From contig JBNZDD010013659.1 in the NCBI GenBank assembly GCA_050575255.1, positions 1,616,734-1,680,733 of the forward strand: a stretch of 64,000 bases of DNA, written 5' to 3'. The translations under genes and the position numbers were made by a program. Source of the DNA: Harriotta raleighana. Taxonomy: Eukaryota. A model generated the notes under the pieces. It made no database searches. It worked only from the letters and a program-made list of their open reading frames with translations, and was not told where the DNA came from. This document shows, piece by piece, positions 1 to 32,556 of the stretch. The first letter of the stretch is position 1, and each line of letters opens with the position of its first letter.

Positions 1-1889
1 TAGTAGTTTATTATATATAATATTAGATTACTAGATTATATTAGATAATATATTATCTAATATATTAGATTACTACTAATATTCCTTGCATTTGTTATAT
101 TTGACCATTTGTTTCAGGGGATGCCATTAAGTCCAGTATAACAAACATCTTATCCCCCACCCATTGTGCTCGATCCTGACCCCTGACTGTTTAACGCCTT
201 GTGATGTCCTCCCGATGTGAAAGGTGCTCTACAAATGTAATTTTGTGGTAGTTATCTGATTTTAAAAGGAATATTCCAGGTCACATTCTGGTAAAGGAGA
301 TACTGTAATACCATAGGAGGAATTCACTATCTCATTAATGTTCAACAAAATAATTTCTTAACCATACTTTTACATCATGTTTTTATTGTGGAAAACCTGC
401 ATGGAAGGATTATTAGAACTTGGTTGGCATTGGCTTTTTAGATTAGTTAGTGAATGCTTGGAAACGTGATGTCAGCAAAACATTGCATTGTTTTAAGTCT
501 CACTCTGGTCAGAAGCTATTCTCATGGATTTTTGTTGATCTGAGATAAGGTCTCAACAATTCTTTCTGCAAGAATTGTTTTAAGACATGTACAGTATTTT
601 TTTCCTCAGACGTACAACCCAGATTTTGTCAGGTCGATGCTCAACTGCTTATTTTTCTTTAAAAACTTTCTCAAAATCAAACTGTGTGGCACTCTTTTTT
701 TTCCAAAAAAAGTAAATCATAAGGTTGGAGGAAAACCTAGAAATTGTTAAAACACAATTGATAAGATGTAATTATTTGTAATAGTAACTTTAATAGCCCC
801 ATAGTTATAATGAAGTTCAATCAACAACACCAATGCCTTTGTTCCTTTCTTTGGTCCTCAATTTGTAGCCTGGCAAGCACTCTGAGCTCGAGACACAATA
901 GCAAATACATACATACACACACTACAAGGTCACTGGTAAAAATTCAGGGTCACCAAGTGCTGCAAGATCATAAGACAAGAATCACATTGTAAACTCCTGT
1001 ATGTAGATCACATGGGAGCTGAAAGACAGTCCGAGGTGTCTGTACTGGAACAAGTCTGAAGACAAGATATCAACTATTGTATTAGCAATGCCTGTATTTG
1101 TCTAGCGTCTCAGGTTATGTGCTTCCCATATATGTATGTGTATGCACATGTGCTACTTTTCAATGCATATTGTAGGTCTGAAATTTTACCAAGTTTTGGC
1201 AGTTTGAAACCTGTTTGTTTCAAAATTATGGAATATTCTCAAACTTAATTTTGTAATTGGCTCTTCGTAAGAATTGTAGCAAATCAGTTTCCAAATTAAG
1301 ATTGAATTTGAGAATTTTACCCAATCTTATCATCAATTAAAATTGAAAAACAAATTGTTTTTATTGATTAAAACTATGTTTTCTGCCCATATAATGTGGA
1401 TTTAATATAGTATATTTCAAAATAGTTTTACTGTAAAAGTTTTTCGCCAAGCAACATCTTTCAATTTATTTCCAGACAAAACTTTGAGGTACTGAATTTA
1501 TTATTCTGGAGTATTATACTAGTTTGACTGATTGGAACTGAACATGGGAAGTGAGGAAAGGCATTGCATTATGGTTTTCTCAACTTAAATTTGCTGCTAT
1601 TAAGAAGTCACTCCTCCCCCCCCCATCTGTAGACTTAATTGTCTCAGATGCCATTGTAAGGAAGGAGATGTCTCTGTTCTTCTTTTATACATAAATCAAT
1701 GATTTATTAACTTTATCATTAGGTCCAAAATGTCTAGGCAATTTCTAGGGTTAGGTTTCTTTAAAAACATTAAATCTCTCAAAGAAGTGTCAACCGGAGT
1801 AATACAAAGACCACAAATTATTTCCAGTAACTCTGCATGAATCTATAATCATTCAGCAAGATAAAATAAGCAAAAGCTACAAGAAACAG

Positions 1890-3603
1890 GTGGGATATAT
1901 TTTTTAAAGTATTTATTATGTGTTACAGCATCATGGAGTTGAGAATCACACATACTGTCATTTATAGAAAAGAAAACAGTCTTCTGTGCTTAAACACGCT
2001 TACACCATTACAGATTCATGAAACGCTGAATAATTTGTGCTCTCCACTCAGCAGGTTGTATTACTTTGGCTCTTTGTTTAAACAGCCTCCTTCGAATTCC
2101 TAAAGACTGAGGTGGGTTAAATCCAAGTGTTCTCACCTGAAATGCTGTCGCGAAACAAGCTGAATTGGCTTAAGCTGTGAAGTCGCCGTCTCGATTTGAA
2201 TGTAGTTAAGTGTTAATGTTGAAATAAAAATCAATCTTAAAGCTGCTTTGCCCCAAAATTTATTTACACTGAATCATTTATCAATAAGATCACAATATCA
2301 AAAAATATAAGTAAAAATATTTGTAAAAGAATCCCGCAGCTTGTTTTATATAAAGAATTTGGTGGAAGCGCAGTCCTGTTCCCTGCACATATGCTCATCC
2401 CATTATTAATTGTTTTAAAAATCTTTCTTTTCAACTATGTAAAGCAGCTGCTGGTTGTTACAGTACTGGAAGTTAGCCCACAACTTTCATTTTAGGAACG
2501 TTAGACGATTAAGAGATCTAGCAAAACAGTTAAAAGAAGCTGTAGTGTTTCGGAAACCGTGGCAAATATATCCTTGCAAGCAAGGAAACAATGGAATGAG
2601 GGGATGCACATTTTTGGGTGAAGAACCAAAAGATCTGAGCTGTTTTATTTGAACGGCCATGAATGGTAAGTTAATGCACAGAGAAACCGCAACTTGGGAA
2701 AAGGGAGGCAGCAAAAAGCCTTGAAATTTATCACAGTGATCAATAAAGATGGAAGTGCACATTTTGGCCCAAACTGACAGCAGGTCCTCATGTGGATCAC
2801 AGTGCTGTAAGGAACAGGAGTGAATTAAGTAAAAAAATGAATTGCAAAACAGCAGAGAATTTTGTTTTTTTTCCAACAATTTTTAAAATGCAATTTTCTT
2901 TGGTTAAATCCCCCATCATTATCAGGCAAAGCAGCTTTAATTCAAACGGCGATGCTCACAAGACCGTAAGATATATATGCAAATGTTCTCCTGCGTTACT
3001 TACTTAAGAGTAAATAAATCAGTTGTGGGATATCTCTAAAGGCAGGCTGGGCTGTTATTCCACAAATTATGATTGGGGACAAACCATGCATTAGGAAACT
3101 GCTGTCCATATCATCAATGCAGATCCATTTATTGTTGATGTAATTGTACCATAACACTTTCTAACTGAGTCAGATTAACATTAAAAAATTTAACTTTTTA
3201 AAATCATTAATCTTTTTTTTCTTAAAACTTTTGGTTCTCCTAGCTGCCCGTCAGAAGACCTTCTGATTTAATACTAATTGGCTTAACCGTTTAAACTCTT
3301 TCGCGTACCTCACTTAACCCAGTTTTTTTTTAAATGCTTTGATCAAAAAATACTTATTTTGCGTCTCAACACCATAGCCCAGATACATCGTCTCACACGT
3401 ATGACCACCTTTACAAGGAATGTCTTCTTTACTTTTTAAACTGGATTTGAATCTGCCAAGGGTGGTCTCACCCGGAGGCATCATGAGCTCAATGGATTAA
3501 ACCAAGCTAATGGAAACAGGCTGCCATTTTTTTTAAGCACTCAAAATATGTCATTGTGCCATATGACTGATGCCCCTGAGCAGTGGCCTCCAACCAGCCG
3601 GAT
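1890..3603 (-). other. elovl6: Probable elovl6 3'UTR (about 1.7 kb)
   Basis: Repeat-free sequence between the stop codon and the best poly(A) signal. The 3' end is inferred, not observed. Confidence 0.6.
1912..1917 (-). terminator. Candidate polyadenylation signal AATAAA
   Basis: Minus strand reads ...gcTGTAacacatAATAAAtacttt...ccca, then a GU/U-rich tract (cctgtttcttgtagcttttgcttatttt). An alternative AATAAA lies at 1465-1470. Confidence 0.5.
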
Positions 3604-4028
3604 CTAGGCGACCTTCAGTGCTTTCCTGCTGTTGCTCAAATAGGCCTCGTAAAAGAACTGGCAGAAGAGGACAAAGTAGCTGAGGTACATTAGCGAGGAC
3701 CAGACGATGTTGTGCATGTGGGATGGACACTGGCCTAGCTGCATCCACTCGTACACCAAATAGTTAACAACGCAGCCCAACAACATCTGTGTGATCTGGG
3801 TCATGGTGATGAGCATGGCAAACTTGCGCGAGACTCTGAAGCCAGCCGCTCGCAAAGCATAATAGGAGTACATAACGGCGTGGACGCCATAGTTCATGGT
3901 CATAAACCACCCTCCTCCGGCCACCATGTCTTTGTAGGAATACCAGGAGTACAGCAGCACCGTGATGTGGTGGTACCAGTGCAGAAAGATGAGCTTCTGC
4001 TTCCGCAGTATAATGAACATTGTGTCTC
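3604..4028 (-). CDS. elovl6: elovl6 coding exon 4 (425 nt to the TAG stop)
   Basis: Acceptor cttcctccag|GA, translation [32 protein letters not shown]...[12 protein letters not shown]...RKALKVA*. Contains the elongase HxxHH motif and a basic C-terminus typical of ER retention. Confidence 0.98.
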
Positions 4029-5761
4029 CTGGAGGAAGAGGCAAACAGAAAACTCTTTTTACAAACACCGTTCTTTTATAACAGGAAGCTCGTCTCTGTT
4101 TATAATTCCATGTCTCAGTGAGATGTTGAATTATTATGAATAAAATAATTTTAAGTAATAATCCTTATTCGGACATCTCAAAGCGCTTCATACAAGCCTC
4201 TTAGCTTGGTCATCGTTTATTCATAAGAATTGTAGCAAATCAGCTTCCATATTAAGATTCAATTTGGAAATTTATACACTTATACCCCATGTTAACATAT
4301 TTCAACCCCATTTAAACAGTTTTATACCTCAATTGCGTTTTAATCTGGAGTAGCAGTGTCAAAACACGTCATACACACCCAGAAACTAATCATCATACTT
4401 AGCAGTATCCAAATTATATTGCGAGTTCCACAAGTAGGAAAAAAGAAACAGCAATAGGCCAATCAACCCCTCAAGAACGTTTCACCGTTCTATTGGATCA
4501 TGAATGAATGAATGCCATATAGAAATATTATCATGCCTGGAACAGTGCGGGTTCCCTCTCCTTTTTACCACACTTATTCTTAGTGGACTTGGGACATAGA
4601 TATTATCAACACAATAACTATCTCTCACCAACATTCTTAAATCAAAGGATGAAATGTTTAACTGTAGCATTTAATTGAGTATAATGTTTTGCAAAGTTCA
4701 TTTAGTGAATAAATCCAAGTAGATATAAAGACACCCTGCATCAGAAACTAAAATGAGAGCTTCTGCCTTCGAACAGCTGGAATACTGCACTATCAAAAAT
4801 TAAACAAGAGCCTTTAGAGAACCACATAGAGTGAGGCAATTCAGTGGTGCCTACGTTTGGAAAGATCATGTTGACTGTACTGAGGCCAAATAAGACCAGA
4901 CAGAACCAGTTGAACATACTTTGAACAGCTGGAGATCAGCATGTCATTGCTGGCTTGTGAAGGGTTCCCCTGCCACCCCACCCTCACTCCCACCTCCATT
5001 GTTCAGAATAAGCCATGTTGTTGGCTGCCACGCAAATTCTTTTTAAAAACAGAAACCCATTCTACGATACTCAGGAATCTTTTTGACATACAGAGAAGCA
5101 AAAATAGGTTTTATAATAATAATTCTTACATTTGATAGTGTCTCATTACAGTCGTGGATTGATTGACCAATTTTTTTTGAAGAGATCATTACCCCAGAGA
5201 GCAATCTGCCAAGTGAATTAATTGACTGTATATTTGTGGGTGAAATCGGGCAGCCAAAGGCACAAAACAGTGTCCCACAAACAGGCATGGATTGAAATGT
5301 CCAATTTATTATTGTTTTTTTTCAAGGAATCATTATCACCTCATTGAAACATCTCAAACCACTTCAGTGTAAATCGTAAAGTGACTGTGGATTTTATAGG
5401 TGAAACGCAGCAGCCAACTGCCCACATCAGTGTCTCATTACACAGTCATGGATTGATTGACCAATTTTTTTGAAGAGATCATTAGCCCAGAGAGCAATCT
5501 GCCAATCAACTGTGTTCTTATTGACTGCTAGGTAAACAGGGGTGTGGAGTAAGGAATCTTGTCTAAGGTTTCACCCTGCCCAGGAATTAAACTTAGGTTG
5601 TCTAACCTGCCAGGCGAGTGTGCTAACCCCTATGCTATCAGACTCCATAAGTTTTGATTTATTCTGCACTGTTTCAGTGATACCAATGTACAACAAAGAA
5701 AAAAAATCATGATTTTGCCCCCAAATTCTGCACAAAGCATAAACCTGTCTTCCAGACTCAC

Positions 5762-5913
5762 CTAACTCAGGTGCTTTGCTTAACACAAATGCATACGCCC
5801 AGAATTTGCTGATTGGTCCATTGTAGAAACTTTGGTCGCACACCGATTGTTTCAGGCCTCTTGTAGTCAGGATATATACCATGTATGCTCCAGTACGCAC
5901 AGCACCAATAATA
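5762..5913 (-). CDS. elovl6: elovl6 coding exon 3 (152 nt)
   Basis: Acceptor ttttcttaaag|T, translation [50 protein letters not shown](G), donor G|gtgagt (phase 1). Confidence 0.97.
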
Positions 5914-5945
5914 CTTTAAGAAAAGAAAGGAAAACCGATTATAAA

Positions 5946-7359
5946 AATAATAATAATAATCTTTGCATTTGATATAACTCTTTTCATTTGATTTAACACT
6001 CTCCTCAAACAGTTTTTCCTCCATTCCCCGCACAGTCACTTGCGGCGTTCCACAGGGCTCTTCACTCTCCTCCTGAGCGACATCATCGGCAGACATGGGG
6101 TCAATTTCCACATGTATGCGGACGACACCCAACTCTACCTCTGTGTATCTACGCTCGACTCCAGGACTATTGGCATTCTGACTGCATGTCTGTTCGATAG
6201 CGAGTCCTGGATGAGGGCAAACTTCCTGCAACTCAACGTCAACAAGACAGAAGCTCTCCTGTTTGGCTCACGCCAGCGCCTCTGCACCTCATGCGCTGAC
6301 AAAATCAGCGTCCAAGGCTGTTCACTCCACCTCTTGAAGCCAATCAGGAATCTGGGGGTCTTGTTCGATCCCGAACTTCCTCCCCCACATCCGCTCTATG
6401 ACCGGCACAGCCTTCCACTACCTCCGCAATATTGCCAAGCTCTGTCACTACCTCACCTCCCATGCCGCCGAAACCCTCAGTCACGCCTTTATCCACTTCC
6501 AGGCTGGACTATGGGAACTCTCTTCTCGTCGGCCTTCCCAACTCCTCTCTTCACAGGCTGTAGATCATTCTGAATTCTGCAGCTCGGGTACTCTCCTGCA
6601 CCAAGCTTCATGACCACATTACTCCCATCCTTGCCCGTCTCCACTGGCTCCCCAACCCCCAGAGGATCGAATTCAAGATCCTCGTCCTCACCTTCAAGGC
6701 CATTCACGGCCTTGCCCCCGCCTATCTCTCTGACCTGCTATCTCCCTATCAGCCTGCCCACCCCCTCAGTTCAGCAGATTCAGGGCTGCTCCGTGTCCAC
6801 CACCCTAACCGCCCAACCATCGGTGGCCGGGCTTTCAGCCTCTCTGCCACCACACTTTGGAACTCCATCCCGCAGTCCCTCCACCTTGCTTCCTCCCTTT
6901 CCTCCTTCAAGGCTGGTCTCAAGACCGTCCTCTTTGACCGCGCCTTCGCCTCCCCCACTAACTCTTCCCTCTCTCGCTATTTCCCGCTCCCCACCACCCC
7001 TCGGATCACAACCTGACTGTTCAGAGCTTTGAGACATCTTCCCGACATGAAAGGCGCTACACAAGTGTAATTTTGTTGTTGTTGTTTCATATCTTCTCAA
7101 CATCTCAAAGCACTTCACCAGAATATGTTGTAAAGTGAATTGATTGTATATTTTGGGTGAAATGCAGCAGCCAATCGCACAAAACAGTGTCCCATAAACA
7201 GGCGTGGATTGAAATGACCAATTTATTATTGTTTTTTTTCAAAGGGTTATTATTAAGCTTGTGGAGTAAGGAAACTTGCCCAAGGTTTTGCCCTGCCTGG
7301 AATTGTATCCAGGTCTCTCGCTTGCAAGGGGAGTGCTCTAACCACGAAGCTACAGGACT
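5946..7359 (-). mobile_element. tRNA-headed SINE interrupted by an L2 insertion
   Basis: Head agtcctgtagcttcgtggttagagcact...ccaggcagggc at about 7290-7359, body to 7087, (ATT)n tail at 5946-5987 on the far side of the L2. Confidence 0.8.
5988..7086 (+). mobile_element. 5'-truncated L2-clade LINE (RT C-terminal part, 3'UTR, (TTG)n tail)
   Basis: ORF 6040-6573 contains FHMYADDTQLY, W..NFLQLNVNKTE and RNLGV.FD. It is frameshifted, ends in ttttgttgttgttg and is flanked by TTTCAT repeats. Confidence 0.92.
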
Positions 7360-7510
7360 CCACATTATGTAACATGACATCAGATTAATGAAGGTATTTA
7401 TTTCTGGTTACCTGATTTTATCATTAATACTGAGCTCAGTGATACTCAATTATAGTGTGTCATTCAGCAACTGAAACTAACTGGAACATTTTTCTTTAAC
7501 AAATTCAGTA

Positions 7511-8449
7511 CAGTTAACTCTCGTCGATCGCGGAAGTTACATTCCTGGAAAACTGGGCACTCAACAAAATCGTGTTGGAGAAGCTTAAGAAGTAATGGGA
7601 AAAGAGGGGTTAGGGGAATCCAGTTGCAGGCTACCCACCTCAAGCCTCCAGCACATCCGTTGCAAGGTACCTACTGAGGCGGGCTGGCCTGCTCCTTGCT
7701 CTGCCTGCCTCTCCCCTTTCTTCTTGCCCATACCCCCCCCCCCCCCCCACTCTTCCTGCTCTCATTTCTCCTATCACCCAGGAAGTCGGCAAATCAGGGC
7801 AGCCCGGGAGGGAGGCAGAGAGAAATCAGGGAGAGCAGCGGGCGGGCGGGTGGGAGGGAACGGAGAACTGCTCGGAGGAGCAGGGGGACTTGGGAAGGTG
7901 CGGAGCAGCGAGCCGCTCTGAGGCGAGGGGGGTTAGGGGGGACTTGGCAAGGTGGGGATCAGCGAGCCGCTCGGAGGGCAGAGTGCTGGGGACACAGAAA
8001 GGTTACAGCGGCTTTGTTATCACTTTACTGCTACAATAAAGTGATAACAAAGCAATAAAGCAATAAAGTAACAGGATAGATTAGCCTACATTTCTGTACG
8101 ATTCTTGTCTCTCTCTCTCTGCCTTTTCTGTTTACCATGCAGCGCAATAAAATTCTCAGATGCCAAAGCGTTATTCTATTTACCCAGAACGCATTCCGCG
8201 TGGGGCTTCGGCTTTATTCGGGATCTGCGGGCCTCGTCAAAAATGCGCATGCGCATGGGACCAGTCAGCCAAGGAATCATCAGATTTAGTCGGGAGCTAT
8301 CGCCGTCTTCTCCCGTGCCCATGCGCACGGGGGCCAGCCAGCGCGTGTACACAAGTTTTACGTGCGCTGCACATAAAAGTGATGCTTTTGTTTTGTCGTG
8401 TATACTTGAATTCGCAATCGATAAAGTCACCTTCGACGAGGGTTAACTG
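7511..8449. mobile_element. Non-autonomous Tc1/mariner (Tigger/pogo-like) DNA transposon
   Basis: TA|CAGTTAACTCTCGTCGA ... TCGACGAGGGTTAACTG|TA: 17-bp TIR with one mismatch and a TA TSD. GC/CpG-rich interior, no transposase ORF. Confidence 0.88.
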
Positions 8450-10705
8450 TATTTTCAATACTAAAGGCAAGTCTCATCTTTCAAGGGACCCATGTGTGAA
8501 ATTATCTGCTTTTATTTGCACTCCAGTTGGGCACAATGGTTGACTTTCTCAGTGTTACAAGGGAATATCTGATGGAATAGTTAGGAAACGTTAAGCAGAT
8601 TCAAATGCTATGTAAATAATGGGACTGTACTACTCAAAAAAAAGCACAGATTTCTTCTTCCATAGTTTCAAGATCTAATATAAAAGAATGAATTGCACAG
8701 TATCCCACATATCCAAAGCACCATCAATTCCCAAACACTGAAAAAAATAACTGATTCTTGCAACCATATCAAATGTCCCAAATTCTCTCAGGCTTTTCAA
8801 ATGCTCAAGTGCACTTCACTGTAAAACTCACCCCCATTTTACTGGGGCAATGTCACCTGAGCATGATCTGATGGGGGAAAGCTGAAGCAGAGGGTGCTGA
8901 TGCTTGGCCTAATAGCTTGGTTGAAATTTGCTCCATTGGTTGAGTAGCTGATTTGTGATTCAGTCACTAAATCTGTCCTATGGCAAATGTTTGTGGTTGT
9001 GGGTGGGAAAATTTACACAAGCTGAAATTTTAAACAAATTAAAAAGAAGTTTGCTGCTTGCTATTCAAAGGTCATCTGAGTAGGTAAAGGACTGTAACTG
9101 CTGCTCTTCCTTTCCCAACCTTACTTTGCTACACCCCAGATAAAAGCCAAGCCTTGCAGTTAATCTCCGTGAGGCAGCACTTCATCACAGCCCAGGGATC
9201 AAGCTGTTTATTTTGGCTTCCTGCCCAAGTTAAAAACAATTATTTTCTTTGCACGAGATAGAATGTCCTACAGCAAGTGTCAGAATATTGCATTGAAAAA
9301 AGGCCTTGAGCGTTTTCTATTGCTTTTGTTGTCCAGTTGATTTTTGTTTCTGTAGAACTCCTGGGAGTACAGCGTGTCTGCAGGACATGCATTCAGGTGA
9401 CACCAGTGACTGCTGCGGCAGTACTCCAACCTGGGGATCTGTGTATAAGTAAGGGAAGCAGAAGCTACACGTTGAGAGCGAAAACTAATGGAAGTGGTCA
9501 ATTTATTACGTTCAGTTAAGAAGTCTGAATGGGAAATACAGGACAGAATTGTCATTGGATTGATTCTGCTACCAACTAGTTATCAGAGGGAGTGGGAGAG
9601 AGAGAGAGAGCAAGAGAGAGAGCGAGAGAGAAAAATGGCCTGAGAATAACGACTGCAAATGGAGAAGCCAAATGCACAACACTGGGTTGTAGCTACAGTT
9701 AATATATCTTTAATAGTTTCTAGCTACATTATTTCTAACATCAAAATGAGCTGCTTACACTAGCAGGCTGTTTTATGAGACACATCAGCTGGGATTCTAG
9801 AAGCAAGGTAACAGCATATTACTGTACAATGGCATCCTTGCATTAGCATTCATATATATTTCTGTGTGGCACTACAGTACGACAGCACCAATATGCAAAG
9901 AAGTGGCATTTAGCACACTAAACTAACCGCTATCTTAAATGAATTAGACAAGGCCAAACAACCATCACATTTATTCTCACTTTGAGACATGATAATTTCA
10001 GAAACTTGTCACATTCAGATTCCCACATTTGCAAGTTTTGAATTGACACTGGTGCCTGTCTGTACATGTTTAAGAGACTCGCACAAAAACGTTATAGGGA
10101 TAGTAGAACTGTTTTGCTGTAGATTTGAGCTCTGAAACAACATACAAAAAAACTGGTTTGATTTTAATCCAAATAACCAATTTATTTCCAAACTTCAAAA
10201 AAAATGCAAAGCTAAAGTGAGAAAACGGCATTTACAAAACAAACCATTGTGCAAATTTTACATCTCAACAAGAATTGCCTATCATATTACTGTCCTTTCC
10301 AGTATTGATTGAGTTGTAAGAGGACTTTGAATTGTTTGATTGTTTGTCAAAAATTACTGTCTTGGTCCAATACAAAACAATTGCGGTTTGTTTGCAGATC
10401 ATTTGAGGACAATAACTCCTTGGACGTATCATTTTGTAGGACACTTGCAGAGCTCACTGAACGGCCTGGCCTCTATATCTTCTGGTTAGTCATAGCAGCA
10501 CATACAGTACTACACTACTGAACCACATCATTGCTAGATAAAACTCCAACTGACATCAGCAGAATTCACTAACCTTTGCCCTACAAATGCTGGGCCACAA
10601 AACAATCAGTCAATTCCCTGGCTGAAAGCATTGGGAATTCCTAAATGTGATTCGTAGGATAAAATTTCTCTGCAACTAGGTGTTTTTATTGATACTGTGC
10701 TCTAT

Positions 10706-29340: not shown

Positions 29341-29583
29341 AAGCTTCACAGCTGGGACAGCATTGCATGCCTTTATCAGAGAGGGAAAGTAGAGAAACAT
29401 CAAACATACACAATGTCTTGGTGGAGGGGGACAGGAGGAAGAGGAGATTAATTTTGTCCAAAGATAGGTTAACAATGCAGAATCAACAGTATGTATGCAC
29501 GCATACAATGCTCAACCTGGTCTCATTGAATCATCTCAGAATGGACTATTCCAGGTGCAAAAGGATAGTCGAATGCCCCAAGG

Positions 29584-29899
29584 TAGGGGTCTCCAACTGG
29601 TCGCCACTGGGTGGCGCTTTCGTGCATAAAAATATAGACAAGATGAAGGAGGAATAGAACTGCAATAAATTAGTCCAATTGCAAATGAAGCCAGAATGCA
29701 CAAAGTAGTTCATGCATCTTGAAATAAAAATACAAATTTTATTGCTTAAACTGCAGTAAATATCGCTCCTTCCTCTTGTTTCAATGCTTTGAGACATTAT
29801 CCCGATGGGAAAGGTGCTATATTAATGCAATTTGTTGTTGTTTTTATTGAGCAACCGCGTGACGCCACCTTGCGGTGATCAACTGGTTGGAGACCCCTA
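29584..29899. mobile_element. hAT-like MITE with a short L2 tail inserted at about 29775-29843
   Basis: Perfect 14-bp TIR TAGGGGTCTCCAAC / GTTGGAGACCCCTA. No clean 8-bp TSD. Confidence 0.75.
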
Positions 29900-32556
29900 C
29901 CTGTAAGGATCACAGTTAGGTGACAAACACTGTGTAAGAGTCAGCTGAATAGATCTTTAAATTTGTAGACCCAAGAAATCAACACCAATAACTGAAGACA
30001 AATCTCACTGCCATTCTCTCACTTTGCTGCACATTCTTAATTTTACCTCACGAAAGCAGAGATTGACACACACAAGGGGCAGAAAGAGAGTGAGCGTTTG
30101 TAGAGAATTAAGCAGAAGAAGGGATAAAGAGCATGGAGAGAGAGTGAGCAGGAGAGAGGGCAAATAAAAAAATGTGGCTACATACACACTAGGACTTAAT
30201 ACTTTTGTGTACTATGCTTTTTCTCTAAACTCTAACTTCTGGACAGTAAAGTACCTCTATTGAACTTCCTACTGAGTTTTTTTGGGTAATCTGACATTGG
30301 TAATGTAGGTTTAGTTCAGTGATTTCCTCTCACTAGAAAGCTGACTGTAGTGTGTATATATGTTTAAACTTGAATTATTCACCCCCCAAGTCAAACGTTT
30401 CTCCAGCTAGACTGGGAGAAGTCAGCAGTTTAGTCACAGCTGGGTAATCTATATATAGTTGTGAGCAATTCTAACTAGAGCATCAAATGTGAGGTTATTT
30501 ATGGAGGCCAATGATTTTGGATTTGGGGACTTACATTTGCCACATTCTTTGACATGTACAGCAAGTAAGGACACCTACAAATAACCTTACACTTCTGTCC
30601 AAAGGGATCTAAAAATAACCTTGCTTTGTCCAAAGCGCAAGTGGGACACGTCATTCCGATGCTCCTCAGTCTTCGGAGTCGAAGTGTCAGCGGGCACCTC
30701 AGGGGAACTTCTCCAGATAAACAGCCTTGGCATGCCACATTTCTTAATGAAGTTAGTGGCCTTTCTAAACACATGGGAGTTTACTCCCCACTCCAGCCAA
30801 AAATGATCCGCTGTAGGGTCTCCATAAATGCAAAACTAAATTAGCTGCATGAGAGCAATGGAGGGCAGCGAGGTCCCACTCAAATAGGTTGTGCACAATT
30901 GGCTGCCATGTTTTGCCCACAAATATAGTTAATTCACTTTACAGTATATTTTGTGAAGTGCTTTGAGACATCTAGAAGATGTTAAAAGTGCTATATCAAA
31001 TGTAAGGATTATTATTATTAAATCTTCTCTAGTGACATGCCTGAGTTTGTGAGCTCAGTGGTGAAGGGATACATTGGGTGGGGGGGAGGCTGTGTGAACT
31101 ATCATGATGAATCTGTTTATATATTGAAAATCTGTGCTGCTATTTGCCAGCAAGCCTAGTTACCCCTGGTATCTCAGCAATGTACTCTTTGCCATGGAAA
31201 GATTTTTGTTTCATGCACTTTTAATGATTAGCAATCTTGTTTCATGTCGACTACTGTGCTAGTGTTATAAAAAATAATTAAAATTCCAGAAATGGTAGCA
31301 TTCATTGCTATAAAGGGGAAAGAGCAAGCATTAAACAAGAAACGCTTGCGATGGCTGCACATGAATGAGATGTTGAATTTCACACACCGACGTATCAGGT
31401 ATCGCTCCGCACTGGCTGCTTTATTTACTCCAGTGGGCTGAACCTCATGGCCTCTCAGTGAAAATTCCTCTGAGCAAAAAATAAAGCGATGCTCTCACGT
31501 TCAACAGCAATCAGTGGGAACTGGAAACATGTAACACTCAAAACTAAACCTCAACACTCCTACTCACAGTGACCAGAATAAGGAGCATTGATCAGTCAGG
31601 GTGTCTCCGGGCCACGTTTTTTTTCAAGAATGATGAGTTGCTTTAAATAATGCCTTTCATGTAGGGAAACGTGTCAAAGAGCTTTCCACACACAGTTGGA
31701 GCCCGAGCTGGGTTAGAAGATAGGTGGGTAGAGTGGACAAAGAACAATCAAAGAGATAGGTTCTTGGATATGTTTTGAAAGTGGAGGTTGAGGGATTCAG
31801 GAAGAGAATTCCAGAAAATAGGGCAACCCGGCTGAAAGTTTGTCAGTTAATGATGAGATGGAATAGGCAAGGTACAGATTTGTCAAAGAAGAAAGAGTGG
31901 GTGGGGAAGCAGGACTATAGGAAATCATAGAGTTATGGGGGGGCAAGGCAAGAGAGTTGTGTTTCGGTAAAAACAAGATCTTAAAATTGACATTCTAATT
32001 CAAACAAATAGGCTCATAAATTGCACAGCTACTTTGTTTGTTAGGAGTGAAATAACTAATAAAAAATAATCCTTGCATTGAGATGTTAATTCAAGGTCCC
32101 ATATTTTTGTTCAAATGGACATTAATGATTTCATGGCATTGGTTCGAAAAGAGAAGGGAGTTTCTCCCAGTATTCTGGAAAACAATCACTAAATAAAATT
32201 GATCATTAATTTTGTGGCTATTTGTGGGGCATTGCTATGTGTAAATTGGCTGCTGCAACCGCCTACAAAATACAATCACTACACTTTACAGCATATCCTG
32301 TGAAGCACTTTGAATTTGTTTCATCAAATGTTGATTTCCCAAACATCAGAGTTGCAAAATCAAACAAGGATCATTATTATGTTTCCCTAAATCACATCAA
32401 AATTTCCCAAAGTACTTCACAGGTAATTGCTGTTAAAGTGTAGTGACTATTTTTACAGCAAGCAGTCAGGTTACACACAGCAAGATCATAAAGTCACAAG
32501 GTATATGACATTAATCTGCAGTAATTTTAGCCAGGATGTTGGGAAGAAACTCCTCT

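Follow-up and report, generated by a model that had tools for sequence, protein, structure and literature searches.

The question raised by this locus is whether the 3′UTR of elovl6 in Harriotta raleighana folds over about 1 kb into one large structured domain. A preliminary description of the DNA analysed here (64,000 nt, hereafter the window) had listed six nested inverted matches, called H1 to H6 from the outermost to the innermost, in what it took to be this UTR, and had read them as such a domain. All six, as well as a segment at 2441–2449 put forward as an alternative partner for H4, were located at the coordinates claimed. What emerges from the analysis is one real long-range match, H4, in a conserved and transcribed UTR, and not an established six-helix domain.

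The last coding exon of elovl6 lies on the minus strand at 3604–4029, as judged from its translation, with the stop codon at 3606–3604. Its product matches the Pfam ELO family and is 93–94% identical to the shark and skate ELOVL6 proteins and 87% identical to that of the coelacanth, which bears out the earlier gene assignment. In run X10, a loose end at 4030 marks the upstream splice, and three further elovl6 exons lie near 5915–5761, 18247–18119 and 61106–61020; the window is mostly elovl6 intron, which was used as a control. Reads and contigs of relatives from four public runs were mapped to 1201–4200, and 17–61% of the sampled words of 1800–4020 were present in public runs of four organisms (among the matches listed, 20 of 24). 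From organism C, 184 stranded RNA reads cover the minus strand of 1901–4000 at 1.6–15.9x; their depth falls to 0.09x at 1801–1900, just past an AAUAAA at 1917 (1912–1917, minus strand), which is likely the main poly(A) signal since the RNA depth stops just beyond it. On the basis of these reads the main 3′UTR was placed at 1890–3603 on the minus strand (~1.7 kb, the lower limit being approximate). In organism D a spliced contig spans the entire UTR, reaches at least 1215 and then runs on for at least 899 nt more (window 1–1890, minus strand), suggesting a longer UTR form, perhaps extending to an AAUAAA at 387, whose distal part is ~12% diverged. Because the minus-strand RNA of organism C and the spliced contig of organism D cover the UTR, both arms of H4 are present in the mature mRNA; transcripts ending before about 2250 are not what the organism C RNA shows, as it runs to about 1900.

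The stretch had been described as free of repeats, and no copy of the 1890–3603 region occurs elsewhere in the window. An Rfam search of 1–6000 gave no credible match, its two weak bacterial matches falling outside the helices, and the rest of the window gave tRNA-like matches only. Five of these, at 7288, 24149, 33071, 53150 and 63612, lie inside dispersed repeats and are likely the heads of a tRNA-derived SINE. A 54-bp direct repeat (89%) at 1264–1317 and 4220–4273 flanks the last exon and the UTR.

H4 joins a 5′ arm (in the mRNA sense) at 2925–2940 with a 3′ arm at 2237–2252, both on the minus strand, through 16 perfect pairs, or 17 when the U-G pair at 2924 on the mRNA strand is counted; the arms are ~670 nt apart (672 nt between them) and the duplex energy is −29.1. 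Sixteen perfect base pairs were reached in none of 2000 dinucleotide shuffles of 1890–3603, and the stacking energy of H4 in none of 594, while perfect repeats of at least 10 bp numbered 8 against 2.9 ± 1.7 expected. H4 is the sole one of the six matches that is above chance by itself. Its pair probability was 0.86–0.99, whether at 37 or 10 °C, in all seven mRNA-strand folds that included its two arms, and up to 0.89 in the mRNA-strand fold of the whole UTR; 2441–2449, the supposed alternative partner, had a probability of 0.00 in 7/7 folds and can be set aside. The window was cut into 37 tiles, of which 32 were used. In the 31 N-free tiles besides that of H4, two helices were stronger than H4 and one was equal; the two stronger helices resemble transposon ends. 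In this comparison strong helices were commoner in the real sequence than in shuffles. Two apparent relatives of the arms were rejected as chance matches: the H4 16-mer occurs once each in 14 viral contigs, never with both arms, and a 22/23 match between 2233–2255 of the window and 2611–2633 of L062, in the UTR of an invertebrate elongase without introns, lacks the partner arm and is equalled in score by 5/100 shuffles.

Two other inverted structures were observed in the window. Near-perfect 21-bp inverted ends at 7507–7527 and 8433–8453, TA-flanked and ~950 nt apart in an elovl6 intron, enclose a perfect 17-bp hairpin (8011–8053), and the whole looks like what we take to be a Tc1/mariner-type MITE. 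The strongest inverted repeat of the window (29581–29601 and 29882–29902, 17 bp perfect) bounds a 320-nt element with presumably hAT-like ends.

Two helices nest inside H4, and the three are the strongest of those spanning >100 nt. H5 (5′ arm 2806–2819, 3′ arm 2374–2387, minus strand), the second strongest long-range helix, has 11 bp on the mRNA strand (2819–2809) and a probability of 0.67–0.85 at 37 °C and 0.00 at 10 °C on that strand. H6 (5′ arm 2587–2600, 3′ arm 2394–2407, minus strand) carries two G-U pairs and, alone of the six, is specific to the mRNA sense, with a probability of 0.95 on the minus strand versus 0.01 on the plus strand. The earlier claim that plus-strand mismatches become G-U pairs on the minus strand is right for H6 and for the extension of H4, but only one of the two H5 mismatches becomes G-U on the mRNA strand, the other doing so on the opposite strand only; of seven transition mismatches within or next to the helices, six give G-U in the mRNA (P 0.06 in a post hoc test). 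Taken singly, H5 and H6 are no stronger than the top helix that a shuffle usually contains (mean −21.8). Two helices as strong as these appeared in 22% of 381 shuffles and a nested top three in 6.8%, giving a joint chance of ~0.22 × 0.07 (our own product of the two shuffle fractions), so that H5 and H6 are modestly above chance. Organism C lacks 14 nt at 2596, in its contig as in 9/9 RNA reads, which leaves ~11 bp of H6; when this deletion is modelled, the probability of H6 falls to 0.48 and that of H4 stays at 0.96. Immediately outside H4 lies H3 (5′ arm 2941–2960, adjoining H4; 3′ arm 2176–2200, minus strand), whose blocks a and b are predicted to be paired (0.7–0.9 in the whole-UTR fold of the mRNA strand). 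Its third block, c (2195–2200/2941–2946), which had been counted as part of the helix, is predicted to be unpaired on that strand (≤0.10), and a 36-nt segment at 2201–2236 (minus strand) would be looped out between H4 and H3.

Strong sequence constraint on the UTR region is real. The most conserved block, 1944–2518, contains all the 3′ arms together with the intervening loops; in organism C it is substituted at 8/575 positions (1.4%) and is gap-free inside either contig, compared with 29/248 (11.7%) at 1336–1583 beyond the UTR end (P 8e-10) and 19/532 (3.6%) in the last exon and intron start (P 0.02), and 27/886 positions are substituted over 2515–3370. Organism D similarly shows 116/2408 over 1623–4030 versus 44/363 beyond (P 7e-7). 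Since the loops are conserved as much as the arms, however, conservation does not single out pairing. The organism C contig covering 2515–3125 has four indels, none of them in the H1–H5 arms (among the indels listed, 12 of 48), and the substitutions listed (40 of 252) all fall at 1258–1545, outside the helices, and include no compensatory change. The run of organism E is blank over the exon as well as the UTR and proves nothing. A metagenome scan yielded 80 elongase loci, among them one fish-like elovl6 (L001, 86%) and three paralogue-like loci at 69–70%, and the UTR aligned to none of these four; for the first 1148 nt of the L001 UTR, which lack a strong helix, the alignment is matched by 38/100 shuffles. 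A search of genome contigs for orthologues returned one unrelated locus only.

From the above analysis, we tentatively favour one functional long-range 3′UTR duplex, of the type bound by Staufen and possibly derived from a transposon. According to the fold models, H4 likely forms a long-range duplex that closes a 670-nt loop, with H3a/b outside and H5/H6 inside probably assisting its pairing; the duplex would compact ~40% of the UTR and, by analogy, could be read by a dsRNA-binding protein such as Staufen, which would tune mRNA stability, while H1, H2 and H3c would play no part. Within the conserved block the duplex has no rival in a local hairpin (local z ≥ −0.7 over 1890–2549). Long-range 3′UTR duplexes and conserved complementary pairs are established kinds of structure. 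In the hiCLIP atlas of PMC10164587, STAU1 prefers long-range (>100 nt), AU-rich, symmetric and bulge-free 3′UTR stems, with lower decay in human cells. H4 has both arms in the mature 3′UTR, spans >100 nt and about 40% of the UTR, and resembles these stems in being symmetric, bulge-free, AU-containing and intramolecular; on the other hand, its 16–17 pairs compare with a median of 20 paired bases, and its span of 670 nt with a main peak at 252 nt, among the STAU1 duplexes of the same atlas, the known STAU1 cases are human, and ELOVL6 is unnamed in its main text. H4 also shares the features of PCCRs as given in PMC8052449, namely near-perfect complementarity, at least 10 nt, ≤ −15 kcal/mol, a distance within 10 kb and conserved sequence, and at −29.1 it would enter the second-strongest energy group described there; PCCRs are also enriched for 3′ ends. 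PCCRs lie in conserved intronic regions, across 100 vertebrates, whereas H4 lies in a 3′UTR and its conservation is seen among close relatives only.

The reading that survives best beside a functional duplex is that H4 represents the TSD and TIR of an old Kolobok/T2-type element at 2241–2936, whose pairing has no role and has been kept as the UTR changes slowly; we regard this as rather unlikely. On the DNA, TTAA stands at 2237–2240 and 2937–2940, bounding a 696-nt stretch (2241–2936) with AG..CT ends and a 12-bp perfect TIR, which is a candidate ancient Kolobok-type non-autonomous element. TTAA followed by AG at both outer ends is the Kolobok signature, and the ends match the Kolobok pattern of TTAA plus 5′-RR..YY-3′ with short inverted repeats. 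A TTAA+RR start occurs in merely 65/8773 chance repeats (0.7%), and H4 is both the only TTAA-starting one among the 50 real repeats of at least 11 bp in the window and the only TTAA-flanked inverted end of at least 8 bp among its 10,421 TTAA pairs. Two further points favour the same reading: transposon ends are what the window's other strong inverted repeats look like, and H4 pairs on either strand equally well. Kolobok elements have TTAA duplications and 5′-RR..YY-3′ ends, with inverted repeats of 11–18 bp in KolobokP (PMC9587614); AG ends occur in 10/10 full-length Xenopus copies (PMC6004289), and UCON29 is an ancient Kolobok trace in human (PMC5753468). In common with a Kolobok/T2-MITE, the stretch has TTAA on both sides, AG..CT, 12-bp inverted ends and no coding frame; it differs in that siblings were not found and the inside is under constraint, and the T2 terminal motif AGGRR is absent, as both ends begin AGCTG and depart from the motif from the third base on.

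The evidence against a functionless relic is as follows. The window holds one 3-mismatch match versus 0.89 expected, and none of three public contig sets gave a sibling pile-up at 80% likeness. At 2901–3000, X9 and X10 show only the depth of one orthologous contig, and X23 has a depth of 0; in contrast, the short repeat at 1281–1325, part of the 54-bp direct repeat described above, reaches >1000x in the same data and is thus, from its pile-up in X9, a dispersed repeat. A recent multi-copy MITE is ruled out, with no copies in the window or the contig sets. The inside of 2241–2936 is changed at only 3/231 positions, and retention of 32/32 end bases without selection would have a chance of 0.019 even at 11.7% divergence; if the stretch is a transposon it must be very old, so that its intact ends themselves point to selection. 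When the stretch is deleted in silico, H3 folds as a local hairpin (z −3.96, the limits being picked by hand), which favours an insertion; but with other limits z ranges from −0.93 to −3.27, 3.9% of 619 GC-matched random joins fold equally, and preset flanks leave no significance, so this predicted hairpin is suggestive only as an insertion trace. The preliminary description had offered a decayed palindromic transposon as an alternative origin: the transposon part is stronger than it was stated, in the form of the Kolobok-type ends of H4, and the palindrome part falls away, since a half-versus-half comparison gave z 1.75 including H4, −0.8 between H4 and H5, and 0.63 outside H3. Under the favoured duplex, it is plausible that an ancient Kolobok-type element left H4 behind as its two retained ends, each TTAA with a 12-bp inverted repeat, and we give this idea somewhat less than an even share of that reading.

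A second alternative, which we judge unlikely, is that H4 is a rare chance match among many scanned UTRs, that the UTR is conserved for linear protein or microRNA sites, and that the helices are incidental. It is consistent with the blanket conservation, with the partial deletion of H6 in a relative and with ordinary folding throughout: the fold energy of 2030–3029, which had been expected to exceed that of shuffles, gives z −1.25 (2/20 shuffles equally good), among 594 shuffles, 48% equal the best nested chain at a threshold of −10 and 10% at −12, and on the mRNA strand all 27 local windows of 120 nt stay at or above z −1.1. Linear sites are likewise at hand: a Pumilio-type motif UGUA(A/U)AUA (as defined in PMC6633259) lies at 2268–2261 on the minus strand, and miR-221-5p and miR-22-3p sites regulate the chicken ELOVL6 3′UTR (PMC7084605). 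The chicken system has the same gene and the UTR as a regulatory platform in common with ours, but the chicken sites are linear, without described structure. Against mere chance stand the shuffles given above, in which 16 bp was never reached and perfect repeats of at least 10 bp were fewer than in the UTR, and the position of H4 in the conserved 1.7 kb of the 64-kb window.

The outer helices bear on the full six-helix form, in which the 1-kb domain would serve as an ADAR or Staufen substrate or as a gate on microRNA sites. H1 (3′ arm 2030–2039, partner 3061–3070, minus strand) is unsupported, with a probability of 0.00 in the whole UTR and 0.95 solely when the fold is cut at 2030–3070, and so is H2 (3′ arm 2083–2092, partner 3039–3049, minus strand), whose probability is ≤0.16 in the mRNA sense and 0.76 in the antisense; in the whole-UTR fold both are displaced by crossing helices at 3281–3321/2113–2175 (0.8–0.9). 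One of these crossing helices has two CpG per arm, and CpG observed/expected is 0.75 over 1944–2236 versus 0.23 over 1–1889. With preset flanks, the gain from joining H1–H3 on the mRNA strand gives z of +0.9 to −1.6 (12/200 shuffles equal at best, 362/400 at worst), and the earlier caution that the shorter helices may be chance thus holds for these three. In a comparison with the opposite strand at 2030–3070, the antisense folds better (−253.7 versus −239.1 kcal/mol); because the antisense also forms H1–H5 when cut at these limits (the whole-UTR antisense forms none of the six), strand asymmetry is weak evidence. In favour of the six-helix form, H1–H5 lie near one anti-diagonal, H1, H3a/b, H4, H5 and H6 form if only 2030–3070 is folded, and the empty-site fold of 2075–3055 reaches z −3.27 (0/150, with limits chosen after the fact). 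Given, in addition, that T>C sites (A-to-I on the mRNA) are not in excess, at 12/61 in the low-depth RNA run X21 versus 17/122 in X9, and that no palindrome or rod signal lies between the helices (z −0.8, H4 to H5), we consider the six-helix domain very improbable. Of the large folded domain originally proposed, the presence of the arms in the mRNA, the constraint, the lack of a family pile-up and the predicted pairing of H4, H3a/b, H5 and H6 stand, and the six-helix 1-kb form does not, H1 and H2 being lost in the whole UTR and H6 trimmed in a relative.

Returning to the favoured duplex, H4 could act by a second mechanism, in which it masks the cleavage zone of a proximal AAUAAA at 2264–2259 (minus strand; with the overlapping Pumilio-type motif, 2259–2268). 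The cleavage zone is expected 10–30 nt beyond a poly(A) signal, and the H4 3′ arm, which begins 6 nt after this AAUAAA, would cover it. The 5′ arm overlaps an AUUAAA at 2941–2936, which it is predicted to bury (unpaired 0.2), and the looped-out segment between H4 and H3 holds a U-rich tract at 2230–2224 that may be a downstream element or CPE. No drop in RNA was found at AAUAAA 2264 in run X21. The depth of run X9 varies 17-fold (6.7 to 113) and goes from 103 to 42 near 2290; because of this variation X9, which is DNA by guess, may be RNA-derived, in which case the fall near 2290 would suggest that the 2264 site is used to some extent. As the UTR contains four AAUAAA, a signal near an arm is estimated to arise by chance about 1 time in 7, and masking therefore stays second; within the duplex reading we give it a minor share, lower than that of a transposon origin. 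Joined together, the two ideas would make H4 the ends of an extinct Kolobok MITE kept as an RNA clamp over the 2264 cleavage zone and AUUAAA 2941, steering 3′-end choice distally, with H3 as an older hairpin split by the insertion; this combined scenario is decidedly doubtful. Two further matches were noted in the UTR. A 10-bp perfect match, 2258–2267/3010–3019, would pair AAUAAA 2264 with two overlapping AUUUA and crosses H4. An 8-mer at 3248–3241 (minus strand), presumably a miR-22 seed match, is joined by 6-mer cores at two further places, 2451 and 2246, the latter within the H4 3′ arm.

The preliminary description knew of no such structure in elovl6, and a literature search, with subscription papers and the main duplex tables largely outside it, likewise found no structure in the ELOVL6 3′UTR; ELOVL6 was not found in the available parts of the supplements of PMC11255127 or PMC8052449, the latter amounting to less than its full 916,360 pairs. 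Because duplexes of this class are already known, an H4 duplex by itself would be a modest gain. Were it to work as a duplex, the regulation of the fatty acid elongase ELOVL6 (C16 to C18) would gain a layer based on RNA structure, and a vertebrate lineage that evolves slowly would provide a clean reporter target with two arms. The finding would weigh more if the arms turned out to be retained transposon ends, which would mark a direct way for short DNA-transposon termini to supply mRNAs with structure over long distances and with control of poly(A) sites.
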